Shown: piece by piece, positions 1,921-35,844 of the stretch
How positions within the stretch are numbered: the first letter of the stretch is position 1
How the letters are laid out: the number at the start of each line of letters is the position of its first letter
Source of the DNA: Escherichia phage T4_ev151
Sequence record: LR597660
DNA: 64,000 nt
Reading direction: 5' to 3' (one strand)
Program-made: the position numbers and the translations under genes
Notes under the pieces: model-generated
What the model saw: only the letters and a program-made list of their open reading frames with translations
What the model was told of the DNA's origin: nothing
The model's database searches: none

Positions 1921-3121
1921 ATTTTGTAATAATGTCAAACTGTTCTTTAAAGCAGAAGCTTGAATCTTGATGCTGATACAAAAATTCATATGCTTTTTCT
2001 CGCTCACGGTCATAAAGAGCTCGGTCAGATGACAGTTCTTTAATACGTTCAAATGTTGATTCCATATCATTTTCATCAAACCAAATGATACCGCTATCAT
2101 GCGAGGTCAAAGGAGTATTATCAACACGGAATTTTAAATTTTCGCCAGTAGATTTCCAAAATACCGGAATTGTTCCACATGCACCAAGCTCGAGATGAGT
2201 ATATTCTAAAGAGCGCTGTAGATATTTTTTATCCAACTTACTCAGCTGATAACCAAATCCGGATTTACTCATGCGTTCAAGCATTTCGCTATTTACATAA
2301 CGGTCAAGAATTTGCGTTGGCAAATTAGGAGCAATTTTAATTTGGTCTACTTGATGAAGACGATAATACTCATATGGAATTCCTTTTTCTTTAATAGGAA
2401 TGAACGCTGGAGAACGTTCCAGACCTTCCATAATAGTACTTAGTCCTGCAGGTTTAAGATGTTTTTCGTGAAAATCAAACATCTGATAAAAACCTTTCCA
2501 TGTAGTCGTACGACCAATCCAACGGTTGATATTCATGTTAATTTCAGAAACATCTTTCCAGTAGGTTGATCGAACCTTCGCAATATCCATAGGAGGCTGA
2601 AAGTTATATACGGTCGGTGCTTCTTCAATATCATCAAACAGAGAAACAGTTTCCGGATACCATTCTTTCATCAGAACTTTATTAAAATCACCATTATCAG
2701 AATGGCTAAAAATAACATCAGCTCGACGAACAGTTTCTTCTAATCCCAAATTTCGACGCAAAGAAAGAGAAGAATGGTCATGTTGATAAACTACAACACG
2801 AACCGAAGGTTTAATGTTATCAATAATTTTTTTATAGTTATTAATAGTGTCTTCTTCAACCGAAGTAGCAGGAACTGAATTGATAATTAGAATATCACAA
2901 TCATTTACCAGCTTAAGTGTTTTATCATATTCTTTTGCCAATAAAACCGGAATTGAAAATGATTTATAATCATGCGCGCAATTACGAGTAAATGATTTAT
3001 CTTTAGCATAAACCAAAGTTACTTCATGACCATTCTTAATAAACCAATCACGTTGCTCAAGAGAAAATTTAGTTACACCACAACCTTCAAGACCTCGAGC
3101 CATAAAAATACATACTTTCAT
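1919..3121 (-). CDS. a-gt: DNA alpha-glucosyltransferase
   Basis: 400 aa, near-identical to recalled T4 AGT (MxxCIFMARGLEGCGVTKFSLEQRDWFIKNGHEVTLVYAKDKSF...). Confidence 0.95.
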   Translation of the reverse strand: MKVCIFMARGLEGCGVTKFSLEQRDWFIKNGHEVTLVYAKDKSFTRNCAHDYKSFSIPVLLAKEYDKTLKLVNDCDILIINSVPATSVEEDTINNYKKIIDNIKPSVRVVVYQHDHSSLSLRRNLGLEETVRRADVIFSHSDNGDFNKVLMKEWYPETVSLFDDIEEAPTVYNFQPPMDIAKVRSTYWKDVSEINMNINRWIGRTTTWKGFYQMFDFHEKHLKPAGLSTIMEGLERSPAFIPIKEKGIPYEYYRLHQVDQIKIAPNLPTQILDRYVNSEMLERMSKSGFGYQLSKLDKKYLQRSLEYTHLELGACGTIPVFWKSTGENLKFRVDNTPLTSHDSGIIWFDENDMESTFERIKELSSDRALYDREREKAYEFLYQHQDSSFCFKEQFDIITK

Positions 3122-3144
3122 TTAATATCCTCTTTGTTTTGGTT

Positions 3145-7163: not shown

Positions 7164-7634
7164 TTAATCATGTTTCCACACCCCATCGGTATTTGACCAA
7201 AGTCGCTGATTATCTGATCCTCGCCACAGCTTTTTAGTCGGAAGATTTTTCTCATACTTCCCATCAATAATAACATCAACATATTTAAGCATTTCTAGTT
7301 GTTTAATATCTTCAAACTTATATCCTGTCCACAACCAAATGCTTTTATTGGGATAAAGATTTTTTACTGTTTGAACAATGCAATGAATAACATCTCGATT
7401 GTCAGGATAGAGAGGGTCTCCTCCAGTTATAGTCAATCCTTCTATATAATCATTATTCAAACATTCAATTAATTGCTCTAGTGTTTCGCCAGTGAATGGA
7501 ATACCATTTCTAGCATTCCATGTTGATTTATTATAACACCCTTCACATTTATGCAAACAACCTGTAACGAAAAGAACGACCCTGCAACCAGGGCCATTCA
7601 CAAAATCGCAAGGATAAAATCTATCATAATTCAT
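7164..7634 (-). CDS. nrdG: Anaerobic ribonucleotide reductase activating protein (radical SAM)
   Basis: 156 aa; CxxxCxxC cluster motif GCLHKCEGCYNK; ATGA coupling to nrdD. Confidence 0.9.
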   Translation of the reverse strand: MNYDRFYPCDFVNGPGCRVVLFVTGCLHKCEGCYNKSTWNARNGIPFTGETLEQLIECLNNDYIEGLTITGGDPLYPDNRDVIHCIVQTVKNLYPNKSIWLWTGYKFEDIKQLEMLKYVDVIIDGKYEKNLPTKKLWRGSDNQRLWSNTDGVWKHD

Positions 7635-9448
7635 TGGTGTTTAACCCTATGCATGATTTCTTTGTTTTTACCGAGATTAAATCCGCGTTCGTTCGGATTT
7701 CCCAAATAACCACATGTTCTTCTTATGGTATTCATCTTTTTAGGATCAGTTTCTCCACAAATAGAACAAACAAATCCGTTTTCAGTAGGAGTCATTTCAT
7801 GGGTACTTCCACATGTAAAACATTTATCTACCGGCATGTTAACACCAAAATAATCTAAATGTTGTGCAGCATAATCCCATACGGCCTCAAGGCCTTTTAA
7901 GTTATTTTTCATATCAGGAAGTTCAACATAAGAAATGTGACCACCTGTCGCAATGAAATGATATGGCGCTTCACGAGAAATCTTTTCAAACGGAGTAATA
8001 TTTTCTTCTACTGAAACATGGAAACTGTTAGTGTACCAACCTTTATCGGTAACATCTTTTACGCTTCCATATTTTTCTGTATCTAGTTTACAGAAGCGAT
8101 AACAAAGGTTTTCAGCAGGAGTCGAATATAAACTAAAAGCAAATCCGGTTCTTTCAGTCCACTGTTTAAGATGAGCATTCATTTTAGTTAAAATTTCCTG
8201 TCCAATATCACGACCGACAAGAATATTCAATTCGTGAATACCAATGTATCCTAAAGACACTGAACTTCTGCCGTTTTTAAATAACTCAATTATATCGTCA
8301 TCAGGTTTAAGACGAACCCCGAATGCACCTTCTTGGTAAAGAATAGGAGCAACAGTCGCTTTAACTCCTTTTAAGGAACTAATTCTACACATCAAAGCTT
8401 CAAAACATAAATCCATTCGTTCATTGAACAATTCAACAAATTTCTGTTCATTGAACTGTGTTCCAATATAAGAATCTAACGCGATGCGAGGAAGATTCAG
8501 TGTTACAACACCAAGATTATTACGTCCATCAAGAATTTCATTACCAGTCGAATCTTTCCATACGCTCAAGAAACTACGGCAACCCATTGGAGAAACAGGA
8601 ACAGATGAACCAGTGATAGCTTTATTGTTCTTAGCTGAAATAATATCAGGATACATCCTTTTGCTTGCACACTCTAGAGCAAGCTGCTTAATATCATAGT
8701 TCGGATCGTCTTTGTAAAGATTAACGCCTTCTTCGACGAACATAACAAGCTTAGGAAAAATAGGAGTTATCCCATCACGACCGAGACCTTTAATACGATT
8801 TTTCAGAATTGCTTTCTGAATCATTCGTTCAGTCCAGTCAGTTCCCGTACCAAATGTAATTGTTACAAAAGGAGTTTGTCCGTTTGAACTAAAGAGAGTA
8901 TTTACTTCATATTCATAAGCTTGGAATGCATCGTATACGTCTTTTTCTGTTTTAGATTGAGCATAATTCAACGCATCGGCGATTTGCCATTTTTCTGCAT
9001 CCTCAATATGTTTTGCATAGGTGCGTTTAACATAAGGAGAAAGTACTTTATCTACATTAGCAAAAGTCGTTCCGCCATATTGGTGAGAAGCAACCTGTGC
9101 AGTAATTTGTGCCATAATTGCAGTAGCAACACCGATTGATTTAGGAGTTTCAATCTGCGCATTACCAAGCTTAAATCCGTTCTCAAGCATTCCTTTTAAA
9201 TCTACTAAACAGCAATTAGTAAATGGAAGAGCAGGGGAATAATCAATATCATGGAAATGGATAATTCCGCTTTCATGCGCTTTCATAATAAAAGACGGGA
9301 CCATATTTTTGGCAATGTGTTTAGACACAATACCAGCCATAAGGTCCCGTTGAGTTGGAAAAACACGAGAATCTTTATTAGCATTCTCGTTTAAAAGGTC
9401 TTTATTAGTTTTATGAATCAATCCTTCAATTTCTTTTTCAATTGTCAT
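7631..9448 (-). CDS. nrdD: Anaerobic ribonucleoside-triphosphate reductase (glycyl radical), uninterrupted
   Basis: 605 aa continuous ORF; C-terminal glycyl-radical motif RRTCGYLG; C-terminal Cys cluster. Confidence 0.95.
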   Translation of the reverse strand: MTIEKEIEGLIHKTNKDLLNENANKDSRVFPTQRDLMAGIVSKHIAKNMVPSFIMKAHESGIIHFHDIDYSPALPFTNCCLVDLKGMLENGFKLGNAQIETPKSIGVATAIMAQITAQVASHQYGGTTFANVDKVLSPYVKRTYAKHIEDAEKWQIADALNYAQSKTEKDVYDAFQAYEYEVNTLFSSNGQTPFVTITFGTGTDWTERMIQKAILKNRIKGLGRDGITPIFPKLVMFVEEGVNLYKDDPNYDIKQLALECASKRMYPDIISAKNNKAITGSSVPVSPMGCRSFLSVWKDSTGNEILDGRNNLGVVTLNLPRIALDSYIGTQFNEQKFVELFNERMDLCFEALMCRISSLKGVKATVAPILYQEGAFGVRLKPDDDIIELFKNGRSSVSLGYIGIHELNILVGRDIGQEILTKMNAHLKQWTERTGFAFSLYSTPAENLCYRFCKLDTEKYGSVKDVTDKGWYTNSFHVSVEENITPFEKISREAPYHFIATGGHISYVELPDMKNNLKGLEAVWDYAAQHLDYFGVNMPVDKCFTCGSTHEMTPTENGFVCSICGETDPKKMNTIRRTCGYLGNPNERGFNLGKNKEIMHRVKHQ

Positions 9449-15164: not shown

Positions 15165-16052
15165 TTAAGATTTAAGTAAATCAACAATTTTAATTAACTT
15201 TTCACGCTCAGATTTAGCTTTACTACTCAGTCCAGATAGTCTGAAAATTTCATCATCATATTGTTGAATAGAAATATTCAGCTCTTCAATTTGCTTATTA
15301 AAATAATCAATTTGCTCAGAATGTTTTTCATTACTACGAACTGGTACAGGTTTTGTAGGCAATTTAGTTGAACTGGATTCATCCGGGCGATAAATTAAAA
15401 TACAACTTGAACCAATAGGGCATTTTGCACCAGATGAATATTCTAATGTTCCGGATTCTTTTAAAACTTCAAAAGCTAAACAGAGATGATGCCCCATATT
15501 AACATAATCTGTAGAGTGAGCTCTGATATAATAATCATCGCCACGAATACTAAATTTAAAGCATTTAAGGTCTTCTGTATTATTGGTCTTAAAAATCATT
15601 TGTTTATCTAGACCTTTAGCTAATCGAGCGCCTAATGCTAATAATCGTCGTTGATTTTCCCACAAATCTGCGATCATTTGGTCAAATGATAATTTCGGCA
15701 TTAGTCGACCATAAAGGTCATATCCTTTATTATAATTGCGAAGGATTTCACTCGCATTAATACGAGACAACGCTCCAATTTTATTAAGGGCTTTCATGAT
15801 GCGATTAGATAAACCCATTCCAGACCCATTTGTTCGTTGTAAATGTTTTTCTAATCCAAATCCAATATCAACTTTAAATTTATCTAAAATTTCAGCATGA
15901 ACATCTCTGTCAATAACATTCAAATCCAAAGTTGGGTTAAATCTATGAAAAAATTTATCTGGCTCTCCACGACGAAGTACAGTCCATTCATTTAATTTTT
16001 TATTAACTAAAGATTTAATTACTGCATTGACATTATTAATTACTACTGACAT
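15165..16052 (-). CDS. Hypothetical protein (possible third paralog)
   Basis: ATG at 16052 (track TTG at 16067); motif WENQRRLLALGARL. Confidence 0.55.
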   Translation of the reverse strand: MSVVINNVNAVIKSLVNKKLNEWTVLRRGEPDKFFHRFNPTLDLNVIDRDVHAEILDKFKVDIGFGLEKHLQRTNGSGMGLSNRIMKALNKIGALSRINASEILRNYNKGYDLYGRLMPKLSFDQMIADLWENQRRLLALGARLAKGLDKQMIFKTNNTEDLKCFKFSIRGDDYYIRAHSTDYVNMGHHLCLAFEVLKESGTLEYSSGAKCPIGSSCILIYRPDESSSTKLPTKPVPVRSNEKHSEQIDYFNKQIEELNISIQQYDDEIFRLSGLSSKAKSEREKLIKIVDLLKS

Positions 16053-16063
16053 ATTTTTCTCAC

Positions 16064-16468
16064 TCAATTTTCAATTTTACTAAATACACAGAATATGATG
16101 GAAAAGACTATATAAGCACCGCATACAGATTGAACTAATACCATTCCAAAGAACCAAACAATATTATCAAACAATGTCTGTTTTACGTCGAAAGGACGTA
16201 AACTTACAGTAATATTATCGCCTTTTTCTATTGATGAATACATCTCTGGTGAAATATATTCACTAAATCTATAACCGTCTTTGAGTTCATATACAGCAAT
16301 AAACGATAAACTAGACCCCTTTCCTTGAGTTCCTGTAAAGGTATTAACTACAGTAACATCATAATCTTTATAATGCATATAATCATTAATAGCATAATAA
16401 CCATATGCAATTATTATACATAAACAACATATCAATAAATTCAATCTTTTAATTATCAACTGTTTCAT
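16064..16468 (-). CDS. Membrane protein (two predicted TM helices)
   Basis: 134 aa; N- and C-terminal hydrophobic segments; ATG start. Confidence 0.55.
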   Translation of the reverse strand: MKQLIIKRLNLLICCLCIIIAYGYYAINDYMHYKDYDVTVVNTFTGTQGKGSSLSFIAVYELKDGYRFSEYISPEMYSSIEKGDNITVSLRPFDVKQTLFDNIVWFFGMVLVQSVCGAYIVFSIIFCVFSKIEN

Positions 16469-16495
16469 AATAATCTCAATTAAAAGGGCTTAGAA

Positions 16496-16520
16496 CCATT
16501 ATACCATCCTTGGTATAAAG
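16496..16520 (-). promoter_or_regulatory. Putative early promoter (extended -10)
   Basis: Minus strand TGGTATAATGG; -35 weak. Confidence 0.4.
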
Positions 16521-16523
16521 CGG

Positions 16524-17051
16524 TTATGCGAGTACCGTCTTTAACCGTTCTTCAAACTTCCGAAGAGTATTTTGGCGTTCAGCTCTTTGCTTTTTGTAAG
16601 TTTCAATACGCTCTGAAATGAGAGTGTATCGTTCATTTACTGATTCTTTCATAAAATCAGGAATTTCACGAGAAGCTTTAATCTCGTCAAATTTATCAAT
16701 AACAGCTTGCTCTTCAGCAATTAAGTTATCATACATCAAAATATCTTTCTTGATGAACTCAATATCTTCTTGAGTTACACGAGATAATTTAGATGCTTTA
16801 TCCTTTTTGTACTGTTCGTTAGTATCACGAGACCAGTGTAATGTACGATTTTTATTCGTATTTTTGTAAATTTCTACAATACCAATCTCATCGATAATAA
16901 CGATCCAATTCCAACGAGATTTGTAAATTTGTCCTCCATCAACCGTGATTTCACCTCCGATTGAGATGTCATTAAAGAACTTGCTTTGTGCTTCTGATTT
17001 AAATTTACCATCATTGTAATTTACCAGGTTGAAAATATCTTTAGCGTTCAT
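16524..17051 (-). CDS. Hypothetical protein
   Basis: ATG at 17051 with GGAGGAACAGAAA SD; track N-terminal extension translates the promoter. Confidence 0.55.
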   Translation of the reverse strand: MNAKDIFNLVNYNDGKFKSEAQSKFFNDISIGGEITVDGGQIYKSRWNWIVIIDEIGIVEIYKNTNKNRTLHWSRDTNEQYKKDKASKLSRVTQEDIEFIKKDILMYDNLIAEEQAVIDKFDEIKASREIPDFMKESVNERYTLISERIETYKKQRAERQNTLRKFEERLKTVLA

Positions 17052-17079
17052 TTTCTGTTCCTCCGTAGTTGATAGTTGT

Positions 17080-17109
17080 ATAGTACCACAGAGGAACGGT
17101 CTTGTAAAC
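17080..17109 (-). promoter_or_regulatory. T4-type early promoter with conserved leader
   Basis: Minus strand GTTTACA, 18 nt, TGGTACTAT, then conserved ACAACTATCAACTAC leader. Confidence 0.55.
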
Positions 17110-17111
17110 AA

Positions 17112-17414
17112 CTAAAAGAAACTTCTTTCACAATTTTTTCCACTGAACCACGCGCTCACTGCTTTCTTAGTCTCAGGAGCAGTGTTATCCATAAACCATT
17201 CAAAGGCAGCCTTTTTATGATTCTGGAGGGCTTCTCGGGCTTTAATCTGCTCACGGTCTATTAACACTAACATATGAGCCTTTCTTGTCACCATGGGCTT
17301 CTTATGATTCTTGGAGTATTCCCAGTCATTTGTCCAACGCATTGTCGTTGCGAACTGATGAACCGCGTCTTTAATTTTAGTTTCGTAAATTTCACGAGCC
17401 TTTGAGTATAACAT
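17112..17414 (-). CDS. Hypothetical protein
   Basis: ATG at 17414 after GGAGG; track 17426 possible. Confidence 0.5.
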   Translation of the reverse strand: MLYSKAREIYETKIKDAVHQFATTMRWTNDWEYSKNHKKPMVTRKAHMLVLIDREQIKAREALQNHKKAAFEWFMDNTAPETKKAVSAWFSGKNCERSFF

Positions 17415-17496
17415 CATTACCTCCATTTACCAGTTTAATTCTAGTCATCTTTTTGATGGCAGTCCATATAATCTATTTCTGAACTGCCTTTTTGTC

Positions 17497-18216
17497 TTAG
17501 GATTCTTCTAAATGTCTTTTCTGAAAAGTTGATACCATACTACGATACGGTTCATTTGGATACCCGTGTTTTATAGCTTCCTTTGTAAATTTTCTCCATC
17601 CATATTTAGTTTCTTTCCAAAGCTCGAATAATTCATCTTCATATTGCCATATAGTTAAATGAGAACGCTTTGCAGCTTTAATTCCATTAATATGCTTTTC
17701 TTTTACTACAGGATTGCTTAGTTTCTTTTTAATAATATTACTAACTTTTCTAACAAAAACTGGGTCCTTATATCGTTGCGAAGTTTTTATTGAAGTGTTT
17801 AATTTAGCTTCCGGCGTGGATGTGACCTCTTTCATCTTTTTCTTCATATGCTGTATATGATTAGGATTTTTCCATAAATTTATAGAATGCTTTTTGCATT
17901 TTATCCTAGTTTCATCTGCAACCTTTCCTCCTTCACCCCCGTATGACAGGTTAACACAGTTTTTTCCATATTTCAATTTACCTGCCATGATATATAATAT
18001 TTCAGCTTGTACCATTTTATCATAATTATCAAAAACTTCTAAAACCGTTTTTGATAATATGTGGTCATTTGACACTTTTACACGTTCTATATAATTTCCA
18101 CTACCAACATACGAATCATTGATGTTATTAGTTATATGTCGACCATAATAATATTTCTTAATACCTGTCTTTAAATTTAATATTTCAGTTTTATAGATAG
18201 TAAAATATTTTTTCAT
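17497..18216 (-). CDS. GIY-YIG homing endonuclease (Seg-like)
   Basis: 239 aa; KKYYYGRH...SYVGSG GIY-YIG core near N-terminus; lysine-rich C-terminal region. Confidence 0.75.
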   Translation of the reverse strand: MKKYFTIYKTEILNLKTGIKKYYYGRHITNNINDSYVGSGNYIERVKVSNDHILSKTVLEVFDNYDKMVQAEILYIMAGKLKYGKNCVNLSYGGEGGKVADETRIKCKKHSINLWKNPNHIQHMKKKMKEVTSTPEAKLNTSIKTSQRYKDPVFVRKVSNIIKKKLSNPVVKEKHINGIKAAKRSHLTIWQYEDELFELWKETKYGWRKFTKEAIKHGYPNEPYRSMVSTFQKRHLEES

Positions 18217-19181
18217 TTTAATAATACCGTTTCAGCGATTTCTTCCCAACCGTTTTTGTCGGTCATAATAAAGTCAGCAAGATAAAGAGCAGTACGCAGT
18301 GAAACATTACGTAAACGATTAACATTGACTTTCATCCATGATAATGCTTTATAAGTTTCTTCATCAGAAAGACCGCGCTTTTGCATCATGTCAGTTGAAA
18401 GAATAACATCTTCAACCCTGACCATAATTTCTTCATTAGTGTGAACACCCAAATCCAAATAAACTGAGCGGGACACTAATGCTTGTAAATGTGGAGCAAG
18501 TTTAGTACCACGGTCTAATTCGCGGTCAATGTCAACGTTTGTGATAAAAACAATCGTTCCTTTAAATTCAAACTCACGCTCAATGCCTTTTTCTTCTAAG
18601 TAAGAAGATGCGGTGCTCCAGCAGACTTTACGGGTCTCTCCAGTGTCCAGAGCAGCTTTCAGAAGATTAAGAATGTCCATATCAGAGAAAACATCCACAT
18701 CATCAATCAAAAGGACAGAATTCTCTTCACGATTATTCCAAAGCTGCTCATAAAGACCAATACCAGAGATTTTACCATTAATGCTTTTATACTCAATGTA
18801 TCCAATATCATTTGCTTTATTTAAAGCTTTATCTAAAGAATACGTTTTACCAATACCCGCCGCACCAGAGATAATTAATGAACGAATATTTCCGTTAATA
18901 ATACCGTTCGTCATCATTCCCATAACATTAAATCTTTTATTAATGCGGGTTTTCATATCTTCATATGATTCTTTAACTTCTTCAACTTTTACACCATCAT
19001 ATGAAATGTCTGATTTGTAAACCCAAACACCGCGACGCTTACCGTCAATTTCAACAAAAACTTTACCATCTCCTTGTGCATCTATCGGAGCATTATCTGG
19101 GAACCATTCGCCCAAGAGTTCAAAAGTTCCAGAGATTTCTTTACCGAAGTAGATACCCTTATTGATAGTTACAGTTTTCAT
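18213..19181 (-). CDS. P-loop NTPase
   Basis: Walker A GAAGIGKT, Walker B LLIDDVD; ATG 19181 with GGAGAATAAA SD (track TTG 19193). Confidence 0.65.
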   Translation of the reverse strand: MKTVTINKGIYFGKEISGTFELLGEWFPDNAPIDAQGDGKVFVEIDGKRRGVWVYKSDISYDGVKVEEVKESYEDMKTRINKRFNVMGMMTNGIINGNIRSLIISGAAGIGKTYSLDKALNKANDIGYIEYKSINGKISGIGLYEQLWNNREENSVLLIDDVDVFSDMDILNLLKAALDTGETRKVCWSTASSYLEEKGIEREFEFKGTIVFITNVDIDRELDRGTKLAPHLQALVSRSVYLDLGVHTNEEIMVRVEDVILSTDMMQKRGLSDEETYKALSWMKVNVNRLRNVSLRTALYLADFIMTDKNGWEEIAETVLLK

Positions 19182-19215
19182 TTTATTCTCCAAATCCGTA
19201 TCAGTTGATAGTTGT

Positions 19216-19245
19216 ATAGTACCATAAAGCTTTATGCTTGTAAAC
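19216..19245 (-). promoter_or_regulatory. T4-type early promoter with conserved leader
   Basis: Minus strand GTTTACA, 18 nt, TGGTACTAT plus CAACTATCAACTG leader. Confidence 0.55.
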
Positions 19246-19269
19246 AGTTTTGTGAAAAATTTTTGAAAT

Positions 19270-19293
19270 AAAAAAGGAAGCCCGAAGGCTCCC
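19270..19293 (-). terminator. Rho-independent terminator
   Basis: Minus RNA GGGAGCC-UUCG-GGCUUCC then U7, right after the stop at 19296. Confidence 0.65.
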
Positions 19294-19295
19294 TA

Positions 19296-20309
19296 TCATT
19301 TATAATAACTTCGGTGGTTTTCAAGATAGACCTTCTCAAGGAAGTCATCCCAGAAACTCATGTCTACTTTTTGCTGCATACCGTTCTTAGAAGCTTCAGT
19401 AGATGCTGCTTCTACTTGATCGACCACATCTTCCAAAAACTCTTGAACCGTTTTAAATGGATGTTTACCCAACTTCACGTCGAGAATAAATGGAGCATCT
19501 TGGAGTGGATAAACCAAGTCACCAGTTTTGTAAATTTCCAATAGTTGGAGTCCACCACGACAAGCATGACTCTGTGCTTTCCAGTCAATGCCCTCATTCG
19601 CTTCAGCCTTACGAGCGCGTTCACCGTATTCAGCATCTAATTTGTTCAGTGACTGCTTAAGCTCAATAAGAGAAAGCGTTGTCTGATATTTACGACCCAA
19701 CACTGTGTAAAACGTTTGTGGGCCTGTTTTCTCATGATTATGGAACACCCATTCACAGAATTCGTTTTCTGGAAGACGATGCTTAATATCTTCAACTTTA
19801 GTGCGACGCTGCTTAATAGAACCATCTTCTTGGTAATCAACCCATTGCTCGGGGATTTGATTAACTACTTTCAATACATCACGTAATGCAGCCAAACGAG
19901 AACCCTTGACACCGTATTTAGAAGCTTGCTTGCGGACATATCCTAAATAGGATTTCATGTTAGTCGTATAAAAACGAGAACGATTGTCTTGAATAAACTT
20001 CCACACATCAGGCAAATCAGATTTAACCACTAACTCAGGTGGAGTATGAAGCATATCTAATGCTACGGTTTCACCATCTGCTGCTAATTTAAAGAAATAC
20101 TTAAGACTGTATAGTTCATGGTCAATATCATCTTTAGTGTTTTTAGATGATGTGTTGTTGGTGTTTTTACTCATGTGCTCTTTGACGTTTCCGATAAGAA
20201 TATCGCGAGCAGGAGGAACAAAGATTTCTTTAAAATCTACATCAGATTCTGGGGTAGAAGTTCCATAAAGATGACTACCAAAATAGCTTTTCATTACTGT
20301 TTTCATCAT
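19296..20309 (-). CDS. Putative nucleotidyltransferase (Pol-beta superfamily fold)
   Basis: 337 aa; N-terminal GSHLYGTSTPESDVDF (G[GS]x9-13Dx[DE]) and downstream DMLH. Confidence 0.55.
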   Translation of the reverse strand: MMKTVMKSYFGSHLYGTSTPESDVDFKEIFVPPARDILIGNVKEHMSKNTNNTSSKNTKDDIDHELYSLKYFFKLAADGETVALDMLHTPPELVVKSDLPDVWKFIQDNRSRFYTTNMKSYLGYVRKQASKYGVKGSRLAALRDVLKVVNQIPEQWVDYQEDGSIKQRRTKVEDIKHRLPENEFCEWVFHNHEKTGPQTFYTVLGRKYQTTLSLIELKQSLNKLDAEYGERARKAEANEGIDWKAQSHACRGGLQLLEIYKTGDLVYPLQDAPFILDVKLGKHPFKTVQEFLEDVVDQVEAASTEASKNGMQQKVDMSFWDDFLEKVYLENHRSYYK

Positions 20310-20767
20310 TCAACCTTATATTCAATAACAGGACATACTTTAGCTTTACGAGCTTTTAAAAATTCAACAATAATCGATTTCTTGGGTTGAATAGGAGGTA
20401 AACCTTTATACGCCCTATCAATATTTTCTACGTGTAAAGCATAATCCTTTTTCCATTTATAATCTTTATATTTTTCACGCAAATGTGCAGGAATAACAAA
20501 TGAACCGATAATAAGTAAAACAACCAAAAGCGCAAGTATAAATGCCGATGGAAGAAGAGTCCATAAACTACCGAAAATAAGCCAACGTTGTAGGCTTTCT
20601 GCACAAATAATTGTTAGCCCTACGAGTATAGCACACCCAAAAATAGAAACGAAAAATGTAGGAATGGCAATAGACCAAAAATATGCGCATAGTGTCTTAG
20701 GTCGTTGCCATTCATCGTTAAACAATTTGAATAATTTATAGTGCCAAGAGTTTTCATTAATAATCAT
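20306..20767 (-). CDS. Integral membrane protein
   Basis: 153 aa, three or four hydrophobic helices. Confidence 0.55.
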   Translation of the reverse strand: MIINENSWHYKLFKLFNDEWQRPKTLCAYFWSIAIPTFFVSIFGCAILVGLTIICAESLQRWLIFGSLWTLLPSAFILALLVVLLIIGSFVIPAHLREKYKDYKWKKDYALHVENIDRAYKGLPPIQPKKSIIVEFLKARKAKVCPVIEYKVE

Positions 20768-20769
20768 AA

Positions 20770-21291
20770 CTATCCTTTCATTGAAGGCGTAACAGTTGTT
20801 AAATACTTAATCATAGCTTCAGCTTCTGATTTTGATAGTGAAATTTCTCCATTGTTTTGACGAATAGAAATAAAATCCGGATGACGGTCACCACCAGCTT
20901 TTAAAACACACATATAAGTATCAGTTTCATCTTCAATATCTGAAATGATTGAAGCAGTTCCACATGAATGTGGTTTTTGATAAATCAATACAGCTTTTCT
21001 TCCACCGTTTGACTGTTCATAAACTTTTAACACATCAAACAAATCACTTCTTTTATCAATAGCTAAAATGTTATTTTCATCTTCAATGTTAAATCCTTCG
21101 GATACTTCATAAAGTGTCACCCATAAATCGCCAATATCAATAACAGCGTTCACTTTTCCATGACTTTCAAGAGAATGACAAATTTTCTTGATTTCGTCAT
21201 AACTCATTTTAATAATATCATCTCCTTGAATAAGAAAGATGTCATTTTTAAATTCAACACGAATTAAACCACTTCCACTTGAAATAAACAT
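20770..21291 (-). CDS. Hypothetical protein (tandem paralog A)
   Basis: 173 aa; C-terminus SEAEAMIKYLTTVTPSMKG resembles neighbour. Confidence 0.55.
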   Translation of the reverse strand: MFISSGSGLIRVEFKNDIFLIQGDDIIKMSYDEIKKICHSLESHGKVNAVIDIGDLWVTLYEVSEGFNIEDENNILAIDKRSDLFDVLKVYEQSNGGRKAVLIYQKPHSCGTASIISDIEDETDTYMCVLKAGGDRHPDFISIRQNNGEISLSKSEAEAMIKYLTTVTPSMKG

Positions 21292-21297
21292 ATTTCC

Positions 21298-21855
21298 TCA
21301 CTTTGAAATCATAGTTGGAATGACAGAATCAAGATAAGTCTTTAGCGCAATAGCTTCGTCTTTGGTAAATGTGACAATATGTGATCGAAAATCGTCGATT
21401 TGGCGAATAGTTAAGACATCTCCCTCTTCATAACATTTTGATACATTTAAAAGAGTTTCATCATTCTGATTGCAAGAGTTAGTAATAATAGCATTGCAAT
21501 TTTTGAGCCATTTTAAACTATGTTTTCTTTCATTAGAATAATAAAAATATTTAATCTTAGCTATAAAACTATCCCAATGGATAACTGATAAACACATTGA
21601 CTCACTTTGAATATTAAATCCTGGGCATGAAGAATAAAAATGAATTTTGTGCTCATCATTGATGCTTACTATTTTATCAGTATAAGGATATTCAATTTGG
21701 GTTAAATGAATGATTTCACTAGGCGTAAAATATAGCATATCGTCTTCTTGCGTCAAACGATACATGTTATTTACTTTTTCTATAGCCAATTCACCAAAAA
21801 GCGGACTAACTTCTAATACTAATCGTTTCATATTGATTCTCTTCGACTCACTCAC
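21298..21855 (-). CDS. Hypothetical protein (tandem paralog B)
   Basis: 185 aa; C-terminus DEAIALKTYLDSVIPTMISK; GTG start with strong AAGGAG SD. Confidence 0.55.
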   Translation of the reverse strand: MSESKRINMKRLVLEVSPLFGELAIEKVNNMYRLTQEDDMLYFTPSEIIHLTQIEYPYTDKIVSINDEHKIHFYSSCPGFNIQSESMCLSVIHWDSFIAKIKYFYYSNERKHSLKWLKNCNAIITNSCNQNDETLLNVSKCYEEGDVLTIRQIDDFRSHIVTFTKDEAIALKTYLDSVIPTMISK

Positions 21856-21990
21856 AATTACATACTCCTTTGAATAATATCAATAATGTTGTTCACCAGA
21901 TTATAAGTAAACATTGGGTAATTATATTGAATCATTACATACACAACAAACAAAACTTTCATTCTCTTCTCCTTGACAGTTGACAAGATT

Positions 21991-22020
21991 ACTATACCAT
22001 AACCTTGCCAACTTGTAAAC
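21991..22020 (-). promoter_or_regulatory. T4-type early promoter
   Basis: Minus strand GTTTACA, 18 nt, TGGTATAGT. Confidence 0.5.
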
Positions 22021-22185
22021 CGTTAAATGTTGTTTTCAATAAAATTTTGAAGCTTTGTGTGAGCATCAACCATGATTTTCATTTCTTCTTTGGCGAAAGC
22101 TGTACCTCTTTCCCGAGCAGAATACTCATAGTCAGAAACTGCATTAGCATATTCTTCAATTAGCTTCATTAAAAACATCTGCTTT

Positions 22186-22380
22186 TCAGTTTTCATTATT
22201 CCACCTAATCATTTCAAGATATTGAACTAACTTAGCTTTAGATTTATCCAAATCCCTTTTAGCTGATTCTATACCATCGTATGAATATCCTTCACAATGC
22301 TCAACTGCTAATTGGTATGAATCTATTTCAATATCATGCGCTAATTTAATGATTTTTTCAAACTGTTCGCGTGTTAGCAT
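22186..22380 (-). CDS. Hypothetical protein
   Basis: 64-aa ORF, ATG start. Confidence 0.5.
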   Translation of the reverse strand: MLTREQFEKIIKLAHDIEIDSYQLAVEHCEGYSYDGIESAKRDLDKSKAKLVQYLEMIRWNNEN

Positions 22381-22382
22381 AA

Positions 22383-22586
22383 TTAAACTCTCGTATTATG
22401 ATCGATAATTTCATCAAGAAACATATCTAACGCTTCTAAAGCATTATCAACTTTAGTTTCAAGTTCATCAATGCCTTTATTTGCAATGCCTGATGAAAAC
22501 CAAGCAAAGTCACTAAGTTCCTCGTCTGCTTTACGAATTAAAGCTACCAATTCCTTAATTTTATCAGCTTGTTCGATACTAATCAT
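22383..22586 (-). CDS. Hypothetical protein
   Basis: ATG 22586 with GGTGGAATA SD (track GTG 22622). Confidence 0.45.
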   Translation of the reverse strand: MISIEQADKIKELVALIRKADEELSDFAWFSSGIANKGIDELETKVDNALEALDMFLDEIIDHNTRV

Positions 22587-22774
22587 TATTCCACCACATA
22601 TGAAAGAGAGAATATTGCACACGCCATGTGAGTTGCAGCTTCATCACACATATTATAACGTTTCTTAAGAAATTCTACAAGTTCTTCACTAGTAACTTCA
22701 TCCATGTCGACGAAAAAATCACCATTAATGATGACGTAGATATTTCCTTCTTGATTGAGTGCTTCAATTTTCAT
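22586..22774 (-). CDS. Hypothetical small protein
   Basis: ATG 22774 with GAGGAG SD; track extension translates promoter. Confidence 0.5.
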
Positions 22775-22802
22775 GATGTTCTCCTCTTTATCCGATAGTT
22801 GT

Positions 22803-22832
22803 ATAGTACCACAGCTCAAACGTAAAGTAAAC
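22803..22832 (-). promoter_or_regulatory. T4-type early promoter with conserved leader
   Basis: Minus strand GTTTAC, 18 nt, TGGTACTAT plus ACAACTATCGG. Confidence 0.55.
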
Positions 22833-22842
22833 CGGTAAAATG

Positions 22843-22864
22843 AAAAAAGTCTCCCGAAGGAGAC
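22843..22864 (-). terminator. Rho-independent terminator
   Basis: Minus RNA GUCUCC-UUCG-GGAGAC then U6, after the stop at 22870. Confidence 0.65.
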
Positions 22865-22869
22865 TAACG

Positions 22870-23256
22870 TTATTCGAGGGAAAGAAGATATTTACTCTGG
22901 TAAAACATCCCAGTAATATCATCTATCGTGCTTTGAATGGCTGGAGGCATTTCTTTATAAATGCTGTTAGATTGGTCTAGTATGCGATCAATCATTTTAA
23001 TTGTGTCGGTAGGAAGTTTACTGGCATCTGGAATAGAAGGCGTGTATTTTCTACCAGAATACCCCAAATATTGCTCACCAAATTTATCAATCAAATCTGG
23101 CAACTCAGAGAAAATAAAATCGTATGCTTTGTGTCTAGCATAACTTTTAGTTTCAAAATGCGCAGAATGAAAATAAGCTTGTGCAGCCATTAATAAACCT
23201 AAGTATTCATCTGCCTTTGAAGGTTTTCCACTTTGTGAAAAGTCGCTGAATTTCAT
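22870..23256 (-). CDS. Hypothetical protein
   Basis: 128-aa ORF, ATG start. Confidence 0.55.
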
Positions 23257-23546
23257 TCAGTCTCCAATTTAATGTTCATAATTCTAGCGTATGATTGTGC
23301 CATCTCCGCGCCTCGTTCTATACATTCAAAATCAGAAGAGCACGGGTCATTTTTATAGGTCGTTCTCATAAAACTATAGAACTGTTCAGACGATTCTACG
23401 CTTTTATTTTCAAAAAGCATATAAACGTGCCTAATACCAGATTCCATAAATTTATCAAAATGAGGATCGACATTCGCTTCAATCGATGGAGATAAAACAA
23501 ACGACAATCCTAGCATGGCAAATAGTGCCGTTGCTTTTAAGGCCAT
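23253..23546 (-). CDS. Secreted/periplasmic small protein (signal peptide)
   Basis: 97 aa; N-terminal MALKATALFAMLGLSFVLSPSIEA; AGGAGG SD. Confidence 0.55.
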   Translation of the reverse strand: MALKATALFAMLGLSFVLSPSIEANVDPHFDKFMESGIRHVYMLFENKSVESSEQFYSFMRTTYKNDPCSSDFECIERGAEMAQSYARIMNIKLETE

Positions 23547-23558
23547 AAAGGCCTCCTA

Positions 23559-23771
23559 TCATTTTTGTCCTGTATTTACTTTATGCCGATGCACGGCCTT
23601 AACTTTATCAAGGTATTTTTCAAAATTTCGCAATCTAGTATAGTCTGCCGGAGATTGGTTGAGTGATACTTCTCGACGCAAAGCTGAAATGATATTTCCA
23701 ACTTCCCTACGAATTTCATCTAATTGAAGCACAGTAAGATTGCGAAGTTGCTTTTCAGTTAATTGTAGCAT
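23559..23771 (-). CDS. Hypothetical basic protein
   Basis: 70-aa ORF, ATG start. Confidence 0.5.
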
Positions 23772-23813
23772 ATATACCCCTTTAGTTAGATAAACCTATT
23801 TATAACTTTTGCA

Positions 23814-24395
23814 CTAACCGAGCTTTTTAGTTAATTCGTTCCAATGTTTTCTACACAAAGAAACATAAATTTCATCACCAATACAGATTTGATTACCTTC
23901 TTTAACTGGTGTTCCATCTTCCATTAATCGAGCTGTCATAATAGCTTTTTTACCACAATGACAAACTGCCTTTAGTTCAATAAGTTTATCTGCAATCGCC
24001 AAAAGTTCTTTAGAACCTTCAAATAATTTTCCAGCGAAATCAGTCCTTAGCCCATAAGCCATAACAGGAACATTATATGTATCAACAATTCGACTTAATT
24101 GATGCACCTGTTCAGTTTTTAAAAACTGAGCTTCATCTACAAATACACAATGAATATCTTTTTGTGCTTCAGCCCATTTATAGAACTCAAAAATATCCAT
24201 ATCATCCGTAATAATATTCGCTTCCTGCTTAATTCCAATGCGAGAAACGACTTCACAGACAGAATCGCGAGTATCAATAGCAGGCTTAAGAACTAATACA
24301 CCCATTCCGCGTTCTTTATAATTATGTGCAGCAGTCAAAAGAGAAGCAGATTTTCCAGCATTCATTGCTGCGTAAGTAAAAATTAAACTCGCCAT
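23814..24395 (-). CDS. tk: Thymidine kinase
   Basis: 193 aa; P-loop AMNAGKS; C-terminal Cys pairs; matches recalled T4 Tk. Confidence 0.95.
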   Translation of the reverse strand: MASLIFTYAAMNAGKSASLLTAAHNYKERGMGVLVLKPAIDTRDSVCEVVSRIGIKQEANIITDDMDIFEFYKWAEAQKDIHCVFVDEAQFLKTEQVHQLSRIVDTYNVPVMAYGLRTDFAGKLFEGSKELLAIADKLIELKAVCHCGKKAIMTARLMEDGTPVKEGNQICIGDEIYVSLCRKHWNELTKKLG

Positions 24396-29184: not shown

Positions 29185-29658
29185 TTATTTGAATGATTTG
29201 ACGTACTGAATAGAGCCTTTGCTATTCACAAAGGCAATTTTACCATTTTTATTATACATGGTAGCAGTACGCTGATAACCATAAGTTTGTTTACCAGATT
29301 GATAACCAACTAATGCAAAATTATCTTCGCCCATTTTATTCTGTTTAGCGCGGATGCGTTCATGGCCATGTGCCATAAGAACCTTAGCATCACCAGTTGC
29401 AATGGATCGACGAGTTTTTTCATCTTCAACTGTATTAACAAAGTCGTCAAATGAATCAAATTTAGCATGAGATTTATTATACAGTTTTCCATCTACTGCA
29501 TAATTATATCCCTGTACATCCATCTCAACTTCTGTACCATCATCCAATACAGCAGTGATTTTTTGACCTTTTTTAAATTTCAAAAGATCAGTAAAAGATT
29601 CAGCAATAATTTGAGAATTAATAGCTGCTTCAGTAATAAATTCTTGATATGTTTTCAT
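29185..29658 (-). CDS. Internal protein family member (capsid-targeting sequence MKTYQEFITE)
   Basis: 157 aa; N-terminus MKTYQEFITEAA with LxE gp21-protease site; AAAGGAAA SD. Confidence 0.65.
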   Translation of the reverse strand: MKTYQEFITEAAINSQIIAESFTDLLKFKKGQKITAVLDDGTEVEMDVQGYNYAVDGKLYNKSHAKFDSFDDFVNTVEDEKTRRSIATGDAKVLMAHGHERIRAKQNKMGEDNFALVGYQSGKQTYGYQRTATMYNKNGKIAFVNSKGSIQYVKSFK

Positions 29659-30109: not shown

Positions 30110-30139
30110 ATACTATCACAATTCTAGGAGAAAGTAAAC
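30110..30139 (-). promoter_or_regulatory. T4-type early promoter upstream of denV
   Basis: Minus strand GTTTAC, 18 nt, TGTGATAGTATA. Confidence 0.5.
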
Positions 30140-32466: not shown

Positions 32467-33060
32467 TTATTTCAGAGAATTAATGTATTCCTGAACATCG
32501 GCAGAGGTAGTTTCAACCCCAGAAATATTACCGTTAAAGGTTTCAACTCGAGCAAGGGTATCTTCAATATCAACCTTAGTCAGTGCTGCAATTTCAACTA
32601 CATCATCGGCAGTACTAATTCCAAGGGCATTTGCTGCACGAGTTTCACGGATATATTCCAATTTAACCGCAAGTTCTTGACGAGCATCATCTAACTCAAC
32701 TACTTTCTTGGCGATTTCAATTCGCATTTCAGCATAACCGTCAGCCTTAGTAGTCAACTGCTCAGCTGTTCGACGATATAGTAAACCGAGTTTAGCATGC
32801 ATTGTTACATCTTGGCCTTCGGAAAGAAGTTTACGAATTTCACGCTCTTTTGATTCGGCCTGTCGATTCTTTTCGATAACAAGTTCACGAATACGTTTTT
32901 CTTCGTTAATAGATTTAACAGAAGCAGTTTTTAGATCTTTAATTTTATCAAGTAGTTTTGCTGCTGCAGCAGTATACTGTTCTTCGACAGATAGATTTTT
33001 AGCCATAGCAGAACCAAGTTTAGTGCGAATAAACTCAACAATTTTCTTCAGTGTGTTCAT
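32467..33060 (-). CDS. Hypothetical alpha-helical coiled-coil protein
   Basis: 197 aa, AAGGAAA SD, heptad-rich. Confidence 0.55.
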
Positions 33061-33161
33061 AGTATTTCCTTAGGTTAATTGAGATTTAAAATCCGTAGGA
33101 GTATAATACTCTATCGTCAAATTATAGGCTCATAATATCTCAATCATGAGCCTGCGTAAAC

Positions 33162-33425
33162 TTATTTCATATTATTGAAATATTCTTCTGCGATTTCGTC
33201 GTTATCATGGTAAACTTTAGAAGACAGTTTAACATAACCTTCTGCTGTGAACATATTAATCACAACTTTTACAGTATACCACTGACCGTCTTCATTACCC
33301 ATTACTGCGTAAGTTTCAAACATCGGATGATCAGGACCGATAACTTTAATATCATTCACTGTACGACCGAAATCTTCTGAAACGCATTTCATAAAGAAGT
33401 TGAACAGTTCGCCGTAATTATCCAT
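33162..33425 (-). CDS. Hypothetical protein
   Basis: ATG 33425 with GGAG SD; track extension translates promoter/leader. Confidence 0.5.
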   Translation of the reverse strand: MDNYGELFNFFMKCVSEDFGRTVNDIKVIGPDHPMFETYAVMGNEDGQWYTVKVVINMFTAEGYVKLSSKVYHDNDEIAEEYFNNMK

Positions 33426-33468
33426 TTCATTCTCCAAGTTGTTTTCTGTATCAGTAGTTGATAGTTGT

Positions 33469-33499
33469 ATAGTACCATGGAAGAACAGAGATGTAAACA
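33469..33499 (-). promoter_or_regulatory. T4-type early promoter with conserved leader
   Basis: Minus strand GTTTACA, 19 nt, TGGTACTAT plus ACAACTATCAACTACTGATACAG. Confidence 0.55.
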
Positions 33500-33621
33500 G
33501 TTTTGTGAAAAAATTTTTAGGGAATTCTAGGGCAGGGATGGGCAATTAAAGGATAGGATAATATATTATAAAGGGTATAAACTAAATGATGCCTAGAGAG
33601 GTCCAGAAAGGCCTAGATACC

Positions 33622-33646
33622 AAAAAGCCCTATCATTTAGATAGGG
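33622..33646 (-). terminator. Rho-independent terminator
   Basis: Minus RNA CCCUAUC-UAAAU-GAUAGGG then CUUUUU, after the stop at 33655. Confidence 0.55.
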
Positions 33647-33654
33647 ATTTAAAA

Positions 33655-34218
33655 TTATTTACCTAGTTTAGTTATTATAGCTTCTGCAGCAGCTTTTAGC
33701 TTAGATGCAGTGTTAATACGATTTTTAATTTCAGTATACGCATCGCCAAGAACATCAAGGCTATCAGAATAAACACTTACACTATTGCGTTCGCTATTTG
33801 AAATAGAACCTTTAGTTTTACGATCAAAATCGGTGTACACGTCTTGAAGATCGCGGGCTGCCTTCTTTGCATCATCCAATGCATCAAGAGCTTTATTCAA
33901 AGCATTAACGTATTTTTTGGTGTCGAACATATTCTTAGAAATTTTAACAGGTGCACGTTCAGGAGTAGCTAATACAGATTTAGGAACCTGAGCGCCAGAT
34001 GCCAATTTCTTAGAAATTTTGAAAAATGCTTTATTGAATTTATTTTCTTGACTCATTGTAAAAGAACTATTATCGATGTTGTACATTTCAATAGCTTTAG
34101 CTTTCCACTTAAGAAAATCGCCGCGGTCTTTTGGGTCCAAGTGGAAGAATACTTTAGTAAGATCTGCTTCAGATGGTAATTTTGCTGCTTCGGTTAAAAA
34201 TTCTGCATAGGTTTTCAT
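33655..34218 (-). CDS. Internal protein family member (capsid-targeting sequence MKTYAEFLTE)
   Basis: 187 aa; N-terminus MKTYAEFLTEAA; AAGGA SD. Confidence 0.65.
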   Translation of the reverse strand: MKTYAEFLTEAAKLPSEADLTKVFFHLDPKDRGDFLKWKAKAIEMYNIDNSSFTMSQENKFNKAFFKISKKLASGAQVPKSVLATPERAPVKISKNMFDTKKYVNALNKALDALDDAKKAARDLQDVYTDFDRKTKGSISNSERNSVSVYSDSLDVLGDAYTEIKNRINTASKLKAAAEAIITKLGK

Positions 34219-34308
34219 TTAAAATCCTTGAAATAATCTATCGGTTGGTTATTAATTATTTATTACTTTGTTATTATCCGTAACAGCGTTATCCGAGTGA
34301 TTCAAACT

Positions 34309-34336
34309 AAAAAGCCCCAACCTTTCGGTCGGGGCT
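34309..34336 (-). terminator. Rho-independent terminator ending the tRNA/stable-RNA transcription unit
   Basis: Minus RNA AGCCCCGACC-GAAA-GGUUGGGGCU then U5. Confidence 0.65.
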
Positions 34337-34652
34337 AAGCCTTGCGGCAACCTTGTCGGGGTTCCACCTGCTAAGGCAAGTGTTTGTACGAAACGCCGGG
34401 ATTCGAACCCGGTTATCAAGCAGTTGACGCTACTCAATATTTTTAAAAGGCCATATCTCGACCATATCCGAACGTTCCGTCAAAAACGCTACTCGGCTTA
34501 CGGCAAAGATATTTCCTCGAATCGATAATTCGGTGCGCCGTTTCTGCTGTGATATAAGGGGGCATTAACAAAACATAAAGATTTATTAATGCCAGTCCTT
34601 AAACAGGGAACATCAGTCCGACGACTTGCCGGTAGCGACCCGGCTTCTTGTC
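34337..34652 (-). ncRNA. Stable small RNA region (T4 species 1/2 position), with a tRNA-like T-arm
   Basis: No ORF; between tRNA-Arg and terminator; GGTTCGAATCC T-arm at 34392-34410 without a full cloverleaf. Confidence 0.4.
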
Positions 34653-34729
34653 TGGTCGAGGCAGAAGGATTCTAACCTTCAACCTACGGATTAGAAATCC
34701 GTTGCTCTATACAATTGAGCTATGCCCCG
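34653..34729 (-). tRNA. tRNA-Arg (anticodon TCT), CCA encoded
   Basis: Cloverleaf read by eye: acceptor cggggca/tgcctcg, anticodon loop tTCTaa. Confidence 0.8.
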
Positions 34730-34732
34730 TAA

Positions 34733-35398
34733 TTAAAATTTCATTTTTCGACCTTTAAACCATCCTTCTGGAATTGGGTCAGTTTTCTTAATACGTTTAG
34801 AAACTTTTTCATCTAATGAATGAATCCACATCATACCAAATTGGGAATTCTTTTCGCCCTGTTGATGTTTATTTCTGGCGTGAGATTCTTTCATTTTATT
34901 AATAGTTTCAGGAGTATGGGTCTTACCCAAGAAAGATTTAGTATTTAAAAATTTCTCTCTATACTTAGGATTATCCCAAAGCCGTTTAAACCTTTCTGAA
35001 CCCATTTTACGATATTTTTCTTTAAGGTCTGGGTCGTTCTCAAATCTGGTTTTAAAAGCGGCAGCTCCTTTTAAGGAAGCTTCTTTCTTTTTATCCAAAT
35101 ATTCTTTAGTGTTTAAATGGTCCCAACCACCTTCACCACCTAATTTCAAATTATAAACATCAGGGCGCTTTAAAAACTCTTCAGTCACAATATTCTTTTC
35201 TGACTCAAACATAGAGGTTTTATCGTCAAAGAACTCTAATATTTCTTTAGAAAAATTTTCTATACCATACTTATCTTGGGCTCTTTTTAATAATTTACCA
35301 GAACCCATATATCCATCATCTAAATTTTCGGTAGAATGAGCGCCTATATAGATTTTATTATTAATTTTATTTGTTATTTTATAAATGTAATGGAACAT
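34733..35398 (-). CDS. segB: GIY-YIG homing endonuclease SegB
   Basis: 221 aa; MFHYIYKITNKINNKIYIGAHS GIY-YIG core; sits inside the tRNA cluster as in T4. Confidence 0.85.
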   Translation of the reverse strand: MFHYIYKITNKINNKIYIGAHSTENLDDGYMGSGKLLKRAQDKYGIENFSKEILEFFDDKTSMFESEKNIVTEEFLKRPDVYNLKLGGEGGWDHLNTKEYLDKKKEASLKGAAAFKTRFENDPDLKEKYRKMGSERFKRLWDNPKYREKFLNTKSFLGKTHTPETINKMKESHARNKHQQGEKNSQFGMMWIHSLDEKVSKRIKKTDPIPEGWFKGRKMKF

Positions 35399-35439
35399 AA
35401 ATATCTCCTATTTCTAAGAGTATTTATGTTCTCAAAATA

Positions 35440-35511
35440 TGGCCCTGGGTGGAATTGAACCACCATCTGGCGATTATGAGTCGCTTGCTTGAACCTTCCA
35501 GCTACAGGGCC
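35440..35511 (-). tRNA. tRNA-Ile (anticodon CAT, lysidine-type)
   Basis: Acceptor ggccctg/cagggcc, T-loop ggttcaattcc, anticodon loop cTCATaa; assignment by T4 order. Confidence 0.7.
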
Positions 35512-35517
35512 TTGATA

Positions 35518-35590
35518 TGCTGATTGACGGAATCGAACCGCCGACATCCTCATTACAAGTGAGGTGCTCTACCTACTGAGCTAAATCAGC
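35518..35590 (-). tRNA. tRNA-Thr (anticodon TGT)
   Basis: Acceptor gctgatt/aatcagc, anticodon loop cTTGTaa, T-loop ggttcgattcc. Confidence 0.8.
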
Positions 35591-35597
35591 GAAATTA

Positions 35598-35684
35598 CGG
35601 AGGCGATAGGATTTGAACCTATGAGTCGCCGGAGCGACTGCCGGTTTTCAAGACCGGTGCATTAAACCACTCTGCCACGCCTCC
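35598..35684 (-). tRNA. tRNA-Ser (anticodon TGA), long variable arm
   Basis: 87 nt; acceptor ggaggcg/cgcctcc, anticodon loop cTTGAaa. Confidence 0.8.
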
Positions 35685-35686
35685 AG

Positions 35687-35760: not shown

Positions 35761-35772
35761 TAAATTAAATTT

Positions 35773-35844
<72 letters not shown>

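Follow-up and report, generated by a model that had tools for sequence, protein, structure and literature searches.

Four near-identical copies of a short repeat on the minus strand of Escherichia phage T4_ev151 are very probably sigma-70-dependent early promoters with short 5' untranslated regions, belonging to one high-identity subfamily of the approximately 35-40 early promoters. The architecture is already known: it is that of the T4 early promoters and of the promoter-early stem-loop elements (PeSLs) of Comeau et al. 2014, and the window, by which we mean the whole stretch of 64,000 nucleotides analysed here (record LR597660), represents a new isolate of a well-studied group. By megablast of positions 16000-24000 and 1-25000, the window is a Tequatrovirus (T-even) segment with 96-98% identity to hundreds of genomes, its closest relatives being AR1, RB32, RB33 and T6 (about 97-98% for AR1, RB32 and T6). 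Its GC content is about 34% and its genes lie on the minus strand up to approximately 41 kb. Synteny with RB32 and T4 places the four copies in the nrdC-mobD-rI-tk...e early region, where they span 16.4 kb of the nrdC-to-e interval.

The 22-mer TGGTACTATACAACTATCAACT occurs exactly on the minus strand at 17067-17088, 19203-19224 and 33456-33477 (copies 1, 2 and 4), and a further minus-strand copy at 22790-22811 (copy 3) carries three mismatches, all within the last four bases (...ATCGGAT). No copies were found on the plus strand of the window, and a chance repeat was ruled out, as the 22-mer had no match in any of 100 dinucleotide shuffles. GTTTAC stands 18 nt 5' of TACTAT in each of the four copies (four matches to the pattern against 0 expected), and scanning the window with GTTTAC-N18-TACTATACAAC returned the same four sites and no others. 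The original prediction of a promoter core repeated four times is thus borne out, with three exact copies and one with three mismatches, by the motif search proposed along with it, which we ran on the window and also on the T4 genome, where the subfamily has eight copies. The predicted sites were right, although their positions were off by 1-4 nt; the spacing to GTTTAC, put at 18-19 nt, is exactly 18 nt to TACTAT throughout; and of what had been called a promoter plus 5' leader core the promoter part holds, while the leader contributes only about 7 nt of the 22-mer.

Numbering followed the T4 convention, in which GTTTAC occupies -36 to -31 of early promoters (Nolan 2006, PMC1524935), so that TACTAT falls at -12 to -7 and the 22-mer covers -15 to +7, from TGn through the -10 hexamer and the discriminator ACAACT to the seventh transcribed base. 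The geometry common to the copies is TTTACA-N17-TACTAT with TGn. The -35 region reads GTTTACA in three copies and GTTTACT in one, in agreement with the definition of T4 early promoters (Pe) as GTTTAC(A/T) at -36 to -30, and all four have TGG and TACTAT with a 17-bp spacer from TTTACA, in keeping with the TGn and TA(T/C)(T/A)AT of Pe. Further upstream, the UP-like A/T-rich tract of this class (A-rich at -40 to -44) is present, copies 2 and 4 having AAAAATTTTT(T)CACAAAACT, and the tracts of copies 1 and 3 being A/T-rich and less regular. Each copy also precedes an early-region gene and shares its orientation, as Pe do. T4 early promoters are composed of UP, -35, TGn and -10 elements with additional consensus regions, and are served immediately after infection by unmodified host sigma-70 polymerase, partly under stimulation by Alt (Hinton 2010, PMC2988021). 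Judged by their letters, the four copies carry every sequence feature of this class. They share with the extended -10 and UP promoters of E. coli sigma-70 a -35-like TTTACA, the 17-bp spacer, TGn, TAnnnT and an upstream A-tract; unlike those promoters, they have the phage-specific G at -36, T at -33 and conservation downstream of the -10.

Initiation is predicted at an A on the minus strand at 17073, 19209, 22796 and 33462 for copies 1 to 4, giving 5' untranslated regions of 22, 28, 22 and 37 nt, respectively. The genes that follow are, by synteny and PHROG matches, nrdC.8, nrdC.10, mobD.5 and e.8, all encoding conserved phage proteins of unknown function. Copy 1, the putative nrdC.8 early promoter and leader (17049..17109, minus; from the motif and synteny with RB32 and T4), consists of GTTTAC at 17104-17109, TGG at 17086-17088, TACTAT at 17080-17085 and an ATG at 17049-17051; its leader has the Shine-Dalgarno sequence GGAGG, and the downstream ORF matches phrog_2274. 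Because its GTTTAC starts 2 nt past the nrdC.9 stop codon (17112-17114), the upstream tract of copy 1 is coding sequence. Copy 2, the putative nrdC.10 early promoter and leader (19179..19245, minus; from the motif and the geometry scan), has GTTTAC at 19240-19245, the -10 at 19216-19221 and the ATG at 19179-19181, with the UP-like A/T-rich tract AAAAATTTTTCACAAAACT directly upstream at 19246-19264. Copy 3, assigned to mobD.5 in the same manner (promoter and leader 22772..22832, minus), has GTTTAC at 22827-22832, the -10 at 22803-22808 and the ATG at 22772-22774, and its leader departs from the others past +3 (ATCGGATAAAGAGGAGAAC). Copy 4, assigned likewise to e.8 (33423..33498, minus), has GTTTAC at 33493-33498, the -10 at 33469-33474 and the ATG at 33423-33425; its leader contains GGAGAATGAAA, and the UP-like tract AAAAATTTTTTCACAAAACT lies upstream.

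Beyond the first transcribed bases, leader identity (ACTGATAC...GGAGAAT.AAATG) is common to some copies only. GGAG is nevertheless found in the Shine-Dalgarno region of all four leaders. The endonuclease RegB cuts GGAG within early Shine-Dalgarno regions, its strong sites having the consensus GGAGRAYARAA (PMC3014915); the Shine-Dalgarno sequence of copy 2 (GGAGAATAAAA) is a perfect match to this consensus, and copy 4 agrees with it at 10 of 11 positions. Structured leaders were ruled out, as the leaders fold no better than shuffles, and so was a known RNA family, since Rfam gives only tRNAs within 16000-38500.

The same promoters stand at the same places in T4, where the 22-mer recurs unchanged at nrdC.8, nrdC.10 and e.8 and nearly so at mobD.5 (-12 bases at T4 53919, 55360, 70672 and 58756, respectively). 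The T4 orthologues agree with the window in locus, orientation, GTTTAC/TGn/TACTAT geometry, UP-like tracts and GGAG leaders, and are almost unchanged: from -36 to about +7 the two phages are identical at three loci and differ by 1-2 substitutions at mobD.5, and otherwise they differ by a small number of substitutions in upstream tracts and leaders, and in the context 5' of the e.8 copy, where the window has an inserted ORF of 187 aa. Four further T4 members, at imm.1, frd.3, motA and ndd.6, bring the subfamily to eight, all in early regions. Sites orthologous to the four copies are present in T4, RB32, Lutter and e11/2; Lutter and e11/2 have features annotated as promoter or terminator at these sites, and annotation was also found in fPS-90. 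A 33-nt probe hit 3816 places in 579 phage records, with typically 5-9 copies per complete genome among the matches listed, all in T-even-like phages of enterobacteria (about 550 T-even genomes). Promoters of the GTTTAC type number about a dozen on the minus strand of the window's early region and 33 in intergenic positions of the whole T4 genome. Since promoter features are absent from the T4 GenBank record, save one note naming an early promoter 'Pe133295', the predicted promoter activity rests on sequence, orthology and reviews; our literature search found no Cappable-seq or transcription-start paper for T4. The T4 record AF158101 also has an N, at about 70346, inside the spacer of the early promoter 5' of e.7 (GTTTACATAGGCTNATG...), so pattern scans of that record miss this promoter.

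Hairpins were assessed by a terminator scan and by folding. A predicted intrinsic terminator 3' of nrdC.11 (19269..19294, minus; hairpin 19275-19294) has the form AGGGAGCC-UUCG-GGCUUCCU followed by U6, with a folding energy of -13.5 kcal/mol, and its orthologous site is annotated as a terminator in phages Lutter and e11/2. Another, 3' of rI.-1 (22842..22865, minus; hairpin 22848-22865), reads AGUCUCC-UUCG-GGAGACU plus U6 (-10.8 kcal/mol). The distance from the U-run to the -35 is about 23-24 nt for copy 2 and about 9 nt for copy 3. A further hairpin, after the inserted 187-aa ORF (33620..33646, minus; stem-loop 33628-33646), has the form CCCUAUC-UAAAU-GAUAGGG plus CUUUUU and lies about 130 nt 5' of the -35 of copy 4. 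Upstream of copy 1, folding gave no terminator; the only fold there was a weak A/U hairpin, which shuffled sequences equalled. UUCG-tetraloop terminators had been predicted at three places, with several promoter copies just downstream of them. All three hairpins exist, two with the UUCG loop and the third with UAAAU, and the close terminator-promoter arrangement applies to copies 2 and 3 but not to the more distant copy 4 or to copy 1.

The inserted ORF (33655-34218, minus; 187 aa) matches phrog_2280, of unknown function; as compared with T4, the insertion separates the rnaC terminator from the e.8 promoter. The protein begins with MKTYAEFLTEA, similar to the sequence that targets the T4 internal proteins IPII and IPIII to the capsid (MKTYQEFIAEA), and on this likeness the ORF may encode an internal protein away from the two classical IP loci. 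In RB32 the same slot holds a different ORF, beginning MKSYAQFLNEA..., which is preceded by TATAAATA and has a duplicated hairpin on its flanks. In the tRNA cluster (34306-34650 and 34653-35937, minus), ARAGORN and Rfam identified seven tRNAs; the stretch homologous to T4 rnaC/rnaD had no Rfam family match. After tRNA-Leu, about 620 nt (35940-36559) are inserted relative to T4, which has tRNA-Gln there.

PeSLs were defined in RB49 and phi1 (Arbiol 2010, PMC2839356), where mini-circles were also shown, and were later extended to T4 and PST with the promoter form TTTACW-N17-TAYWAT (Comeau, Arbiol and Krisch 2014, PMC4122927). Copies 2 and 3 share with the PeSLs of RB49/phi1, PST/T4 and nt-1/KVP40 the order stem-loop terminator, A/T-rich tract, -35/-10, Shine-Dalgarno and ATG, and all four copies share the location in hyperplastic early regions and, as in T4/PST, TTTACW-N17-TAYWAT; they are also, like PeSLs, repeated in near-identical form in non-core parts of such regions. 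The set differs in that only copies 2 and 3 have a stem-loop directly upstream, and in that three of the four show no indel bounded by PeSLs. The RB49/phi1 PeSLs themselves, with TTGACA/TATAAT and polyG/polyC stems, are unlike the copies in the window. The original reading of the repeats as a PeSL architecture is supported by the promoter features, by orthology with T4, by the terminator-then-promoter layout of two of the four copies and by the form published for T4/PST.

Arbiol 2010 attributes to Repoila 1994 the description, at the T-even IP loci, of elements that resemble PeSLs and are built on early promoters (PMC2839356). These share with the four copies the use of T4-type early promoters, and they bound hypervariable slots, the IP slots of the window (37582-37815 and 29185-29658) among them. 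The IP-locus promoters differ in belonging to other subfamilies (TACTAT or TATTAT, then TACCCTATCAA) and in having an inverted repeat straddling the -10 instead of an upstream GC-rich UUCG hairpin. Such repeats, of 6-12 nt and made of part of the spacer and the first transcribed bases (for example GATAGGGT...TATTAT...ACCCTATC), occur in many early promoters without ACAAC, both in the window (37552-37581, 37852-37881, 33132-33161, 21991-22020 and 30110-30139, minus) and in T4 (73915, 73548, 20588, 57966, 133307 and 129895), and are absent from the four copies. PMC2839356 mentions 'weaker stem-loops' in the IP-locus elements, and these repeats are probably what is meant.

What sets the four copies apart from other early promoters is less their first transcribed bases than the sequence before them. 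When 25 other T4 early promoters were tabulated position by position, +1 to +7 proved to be already biased towards A/T/C/A/A/(C or A)/T; A(+1)TCAA(C/A)T is thus a general early-promoter consensus, and the leader part of the repeat is not special. C at -5, in contrast, was found in 0 of the 25, and A-A-C at -4 to -2 was a minority choice there. On the absence of that C elsewhere, the copies with ACAAC form a distinct subfamily. Its members are mosaics: the spacers of nrdC.10 and frd.3 are 100% identical; those of imm.1, e.8 and nrdC.8 are 47-73% mutually identical without gaps, against 20-40% for most other pairs; the leaders of imm.1 and ndd.6 are 92% identical through the first codons; and the upstream tracts of frd.3 and motA are 87% identical. 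Moreover, the nrdC.8 locus of phage e11/2 holds the T4 ndd.4 promoter allele (TACTAT-TACCCTATC, with the ndd.4 spacer), and a T-even contig from IMG/VR has an allele of the nrdC.8 type at ndd.4 (sites at e11/2, L028, 4560-4640; L024, 1340-1445; T4 166783 and 53919). Read from sequence comparison, this swap indicates exchange between far-apart paralogous cassettes by gene conversion.

We attribute the near-identity of the copies to two causes combined: a strong general consensus, which includes ATCAACT around +1, and shared ancestry or gene conversion of the cassettes. The mosaic sharing of the ACAAC discriminator, of some spacers, and of UP tracts and leaders goes beyond what a promoter needs for its function. 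Pure convergence, with each promoter independently at the functional optimum for the host (or Alt-modified) polymerase and neither common descent nor recombination involved, would fit the observation that T4 early promoters outside the family also reach TGn, TA(T/C)(T/A)AT and A(+1)TCAA.T, and the extra consensus regions noted by Hinton 2010 (PMC2988021); we consider it improbable, given the lack of C at -5 in the 25 other promoters, spacers that hold no known recognition elements and yet are 73-100% identical between particular paralogues, and whole promoter alleles that differ between phages at one locus while matching a distant one. Still less credible is that the invariant -6 to +7 segment (ACAACTATCAACT, with CAACT twice) serves as an operator bound by some protein of the phage or the host, for instance in early shut-off. 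This segment does not vary among the 6-9 copies of each genome, over hundreds of genomes, and the mechanism of early shut-off has been stated to be unknown (PMC2988021), but we saw no sign of any binding factor, the other approximately 25 early promoters, which are also shut off, conserve the segment only loosely, and shared ancestry is the simpler explanation of the identity. We also think it very doubtful that the ACAAC subfamily, with its 6-9 copies per genome, its -15 to +7 invariant over hundreds of T-even genomes and the T4 motA promoter among its members, is a functionally distinct class of early promoters; if it were, its response to Alt/ModA, which ADP-ribosylate the alpha subunit of the polymerase, or to early shut-off might differ from that of the others.

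A more dynamic view makes the four copies active substrates of recombination, which excise or insert the intervening genes as PeSL mini-circles, and the main cause of local differences in gene content. As direct repeats, the copies follow one another at intervals of 2136, 3587 and 10666 bp, mini-circles are on record for RB49/phi1 (PMC2839356), and elsewhere in the window early promoters do flank variable slots: the ipI slot (37561-37794, from the promoter at 37881 to that at 37581), the e.7 slot (33076-33123, after a promoter at 33161) and the IP locus (30088). Synthetic junction queries run against 50,697 phage records, however, recovered the junction of a copy 2 to copy 1 deletion in 0 of 677 phage records and that of a copy 3 to copy 2 deletion in 0 of 510. 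A scan of IMG/VR with the 22-mer gave 20 stretches from a few T-even contigs; every copy with both flanks mappable had the same T4 locus on both sides. Among the 16 indel or replacement events that separate the first 41 kb of the window from T4, those between the four copies, a seg-like ORF at 17497-18216 and the replacement of mobD, are gains and losses of homing endonucleases with breakpoints 390-1500 bp from the cassettes. Three of the 16 events had breakpoints near early promoters, where a null of uniform positions predicts 0.98; the enrichment is weak (P about 0.07). We regard it as unlikely that the four copies are active recombination substrates of this kind.

Gene content between these four copies has been stable apart from homing-endonuclease traffic. 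An indel adjoins a cassette at copy 4 only, relative to T4, and is bounded by hairpins: the inserted 187-aa ORF has the rnaC terminator hairpin (34313-34336) on one side and that at 33628-33646 on the other, and in RB32 a different ORF fills the slot between two copies of the hairpin. Variation of cassette-flanked ORFs among relatives, which the original prediction had suggested checking, was thus seen at copy 4 and not as an adjoining indel at the other three. For its wider proposal that such cassettes drive modular gene shuffling, there is little evidence at these four copies, the copy 2/1 and copy 3/2 deletion junctions having been found in none of the records; even so, swapped promoter alleles and mosaic paralogues do show exchange between cassettes.

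The homing-endonuclease content of the window is itself unlike that of T4, with mobB, mobC, the nrdD intron with I-TevII, and mobD absent or replaced (3112-3137, 7614-7634, 8910-8913, 17497-18216 and 20317-21273); as in RB32, nrdC.10 and nrdC.9 are separated by a seg-like endonuclease ORF of 239 aa. The window also lacks the T4 gene e.7 (33045-33176, minus). Here e.8 is followed by an early promoter (33132-33161), about 60 nt with a lone -10-like TATTAT in a small inverted repeat, and then the ribosome-binding site of e.6, and RB32 has an unrelated ORF in the e.7 slot. From its sequence layout, the region looks like an emptied, promoter-bounded gene slot.

Drawing on orthology and the T4 literature, we infer how the four copies would act. 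Right after infection, the host RNA polymerase holoenzyme would bind the UP-like tract, GTTTAC(A/T) at -36 to -30, TGn and TACTAT, and would initiate at the A seven bases downstream of the -10. The GGAG Shine-Dalgarno sequences of the unstructured leaders would then drive translation of nrdC.8, nrdC.10, mobD.5 and e.8, until RegB cleaves the leader GGAG sites and so inactivates the early mRNA. Just 5' of two copies, the UUCG-tetraloop terminator would insulate the unit from the preceding transcript, and terminator, promoter and leader together would constitute the PeSL cassette.

In conclusion, both the promoters and the idea of a terminator-promoter cassette are established for T4 and its close relatives, and the discovery value of the four copies is accordingly small. 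Their value lies in annotation, as they place four predicted early transcription starts and three predicted terminators in the window. Within the T-even phages, exchange from cassette to cassette can be seen in the swapped promoter alleles and in the mosaic make-up of the paralogues.
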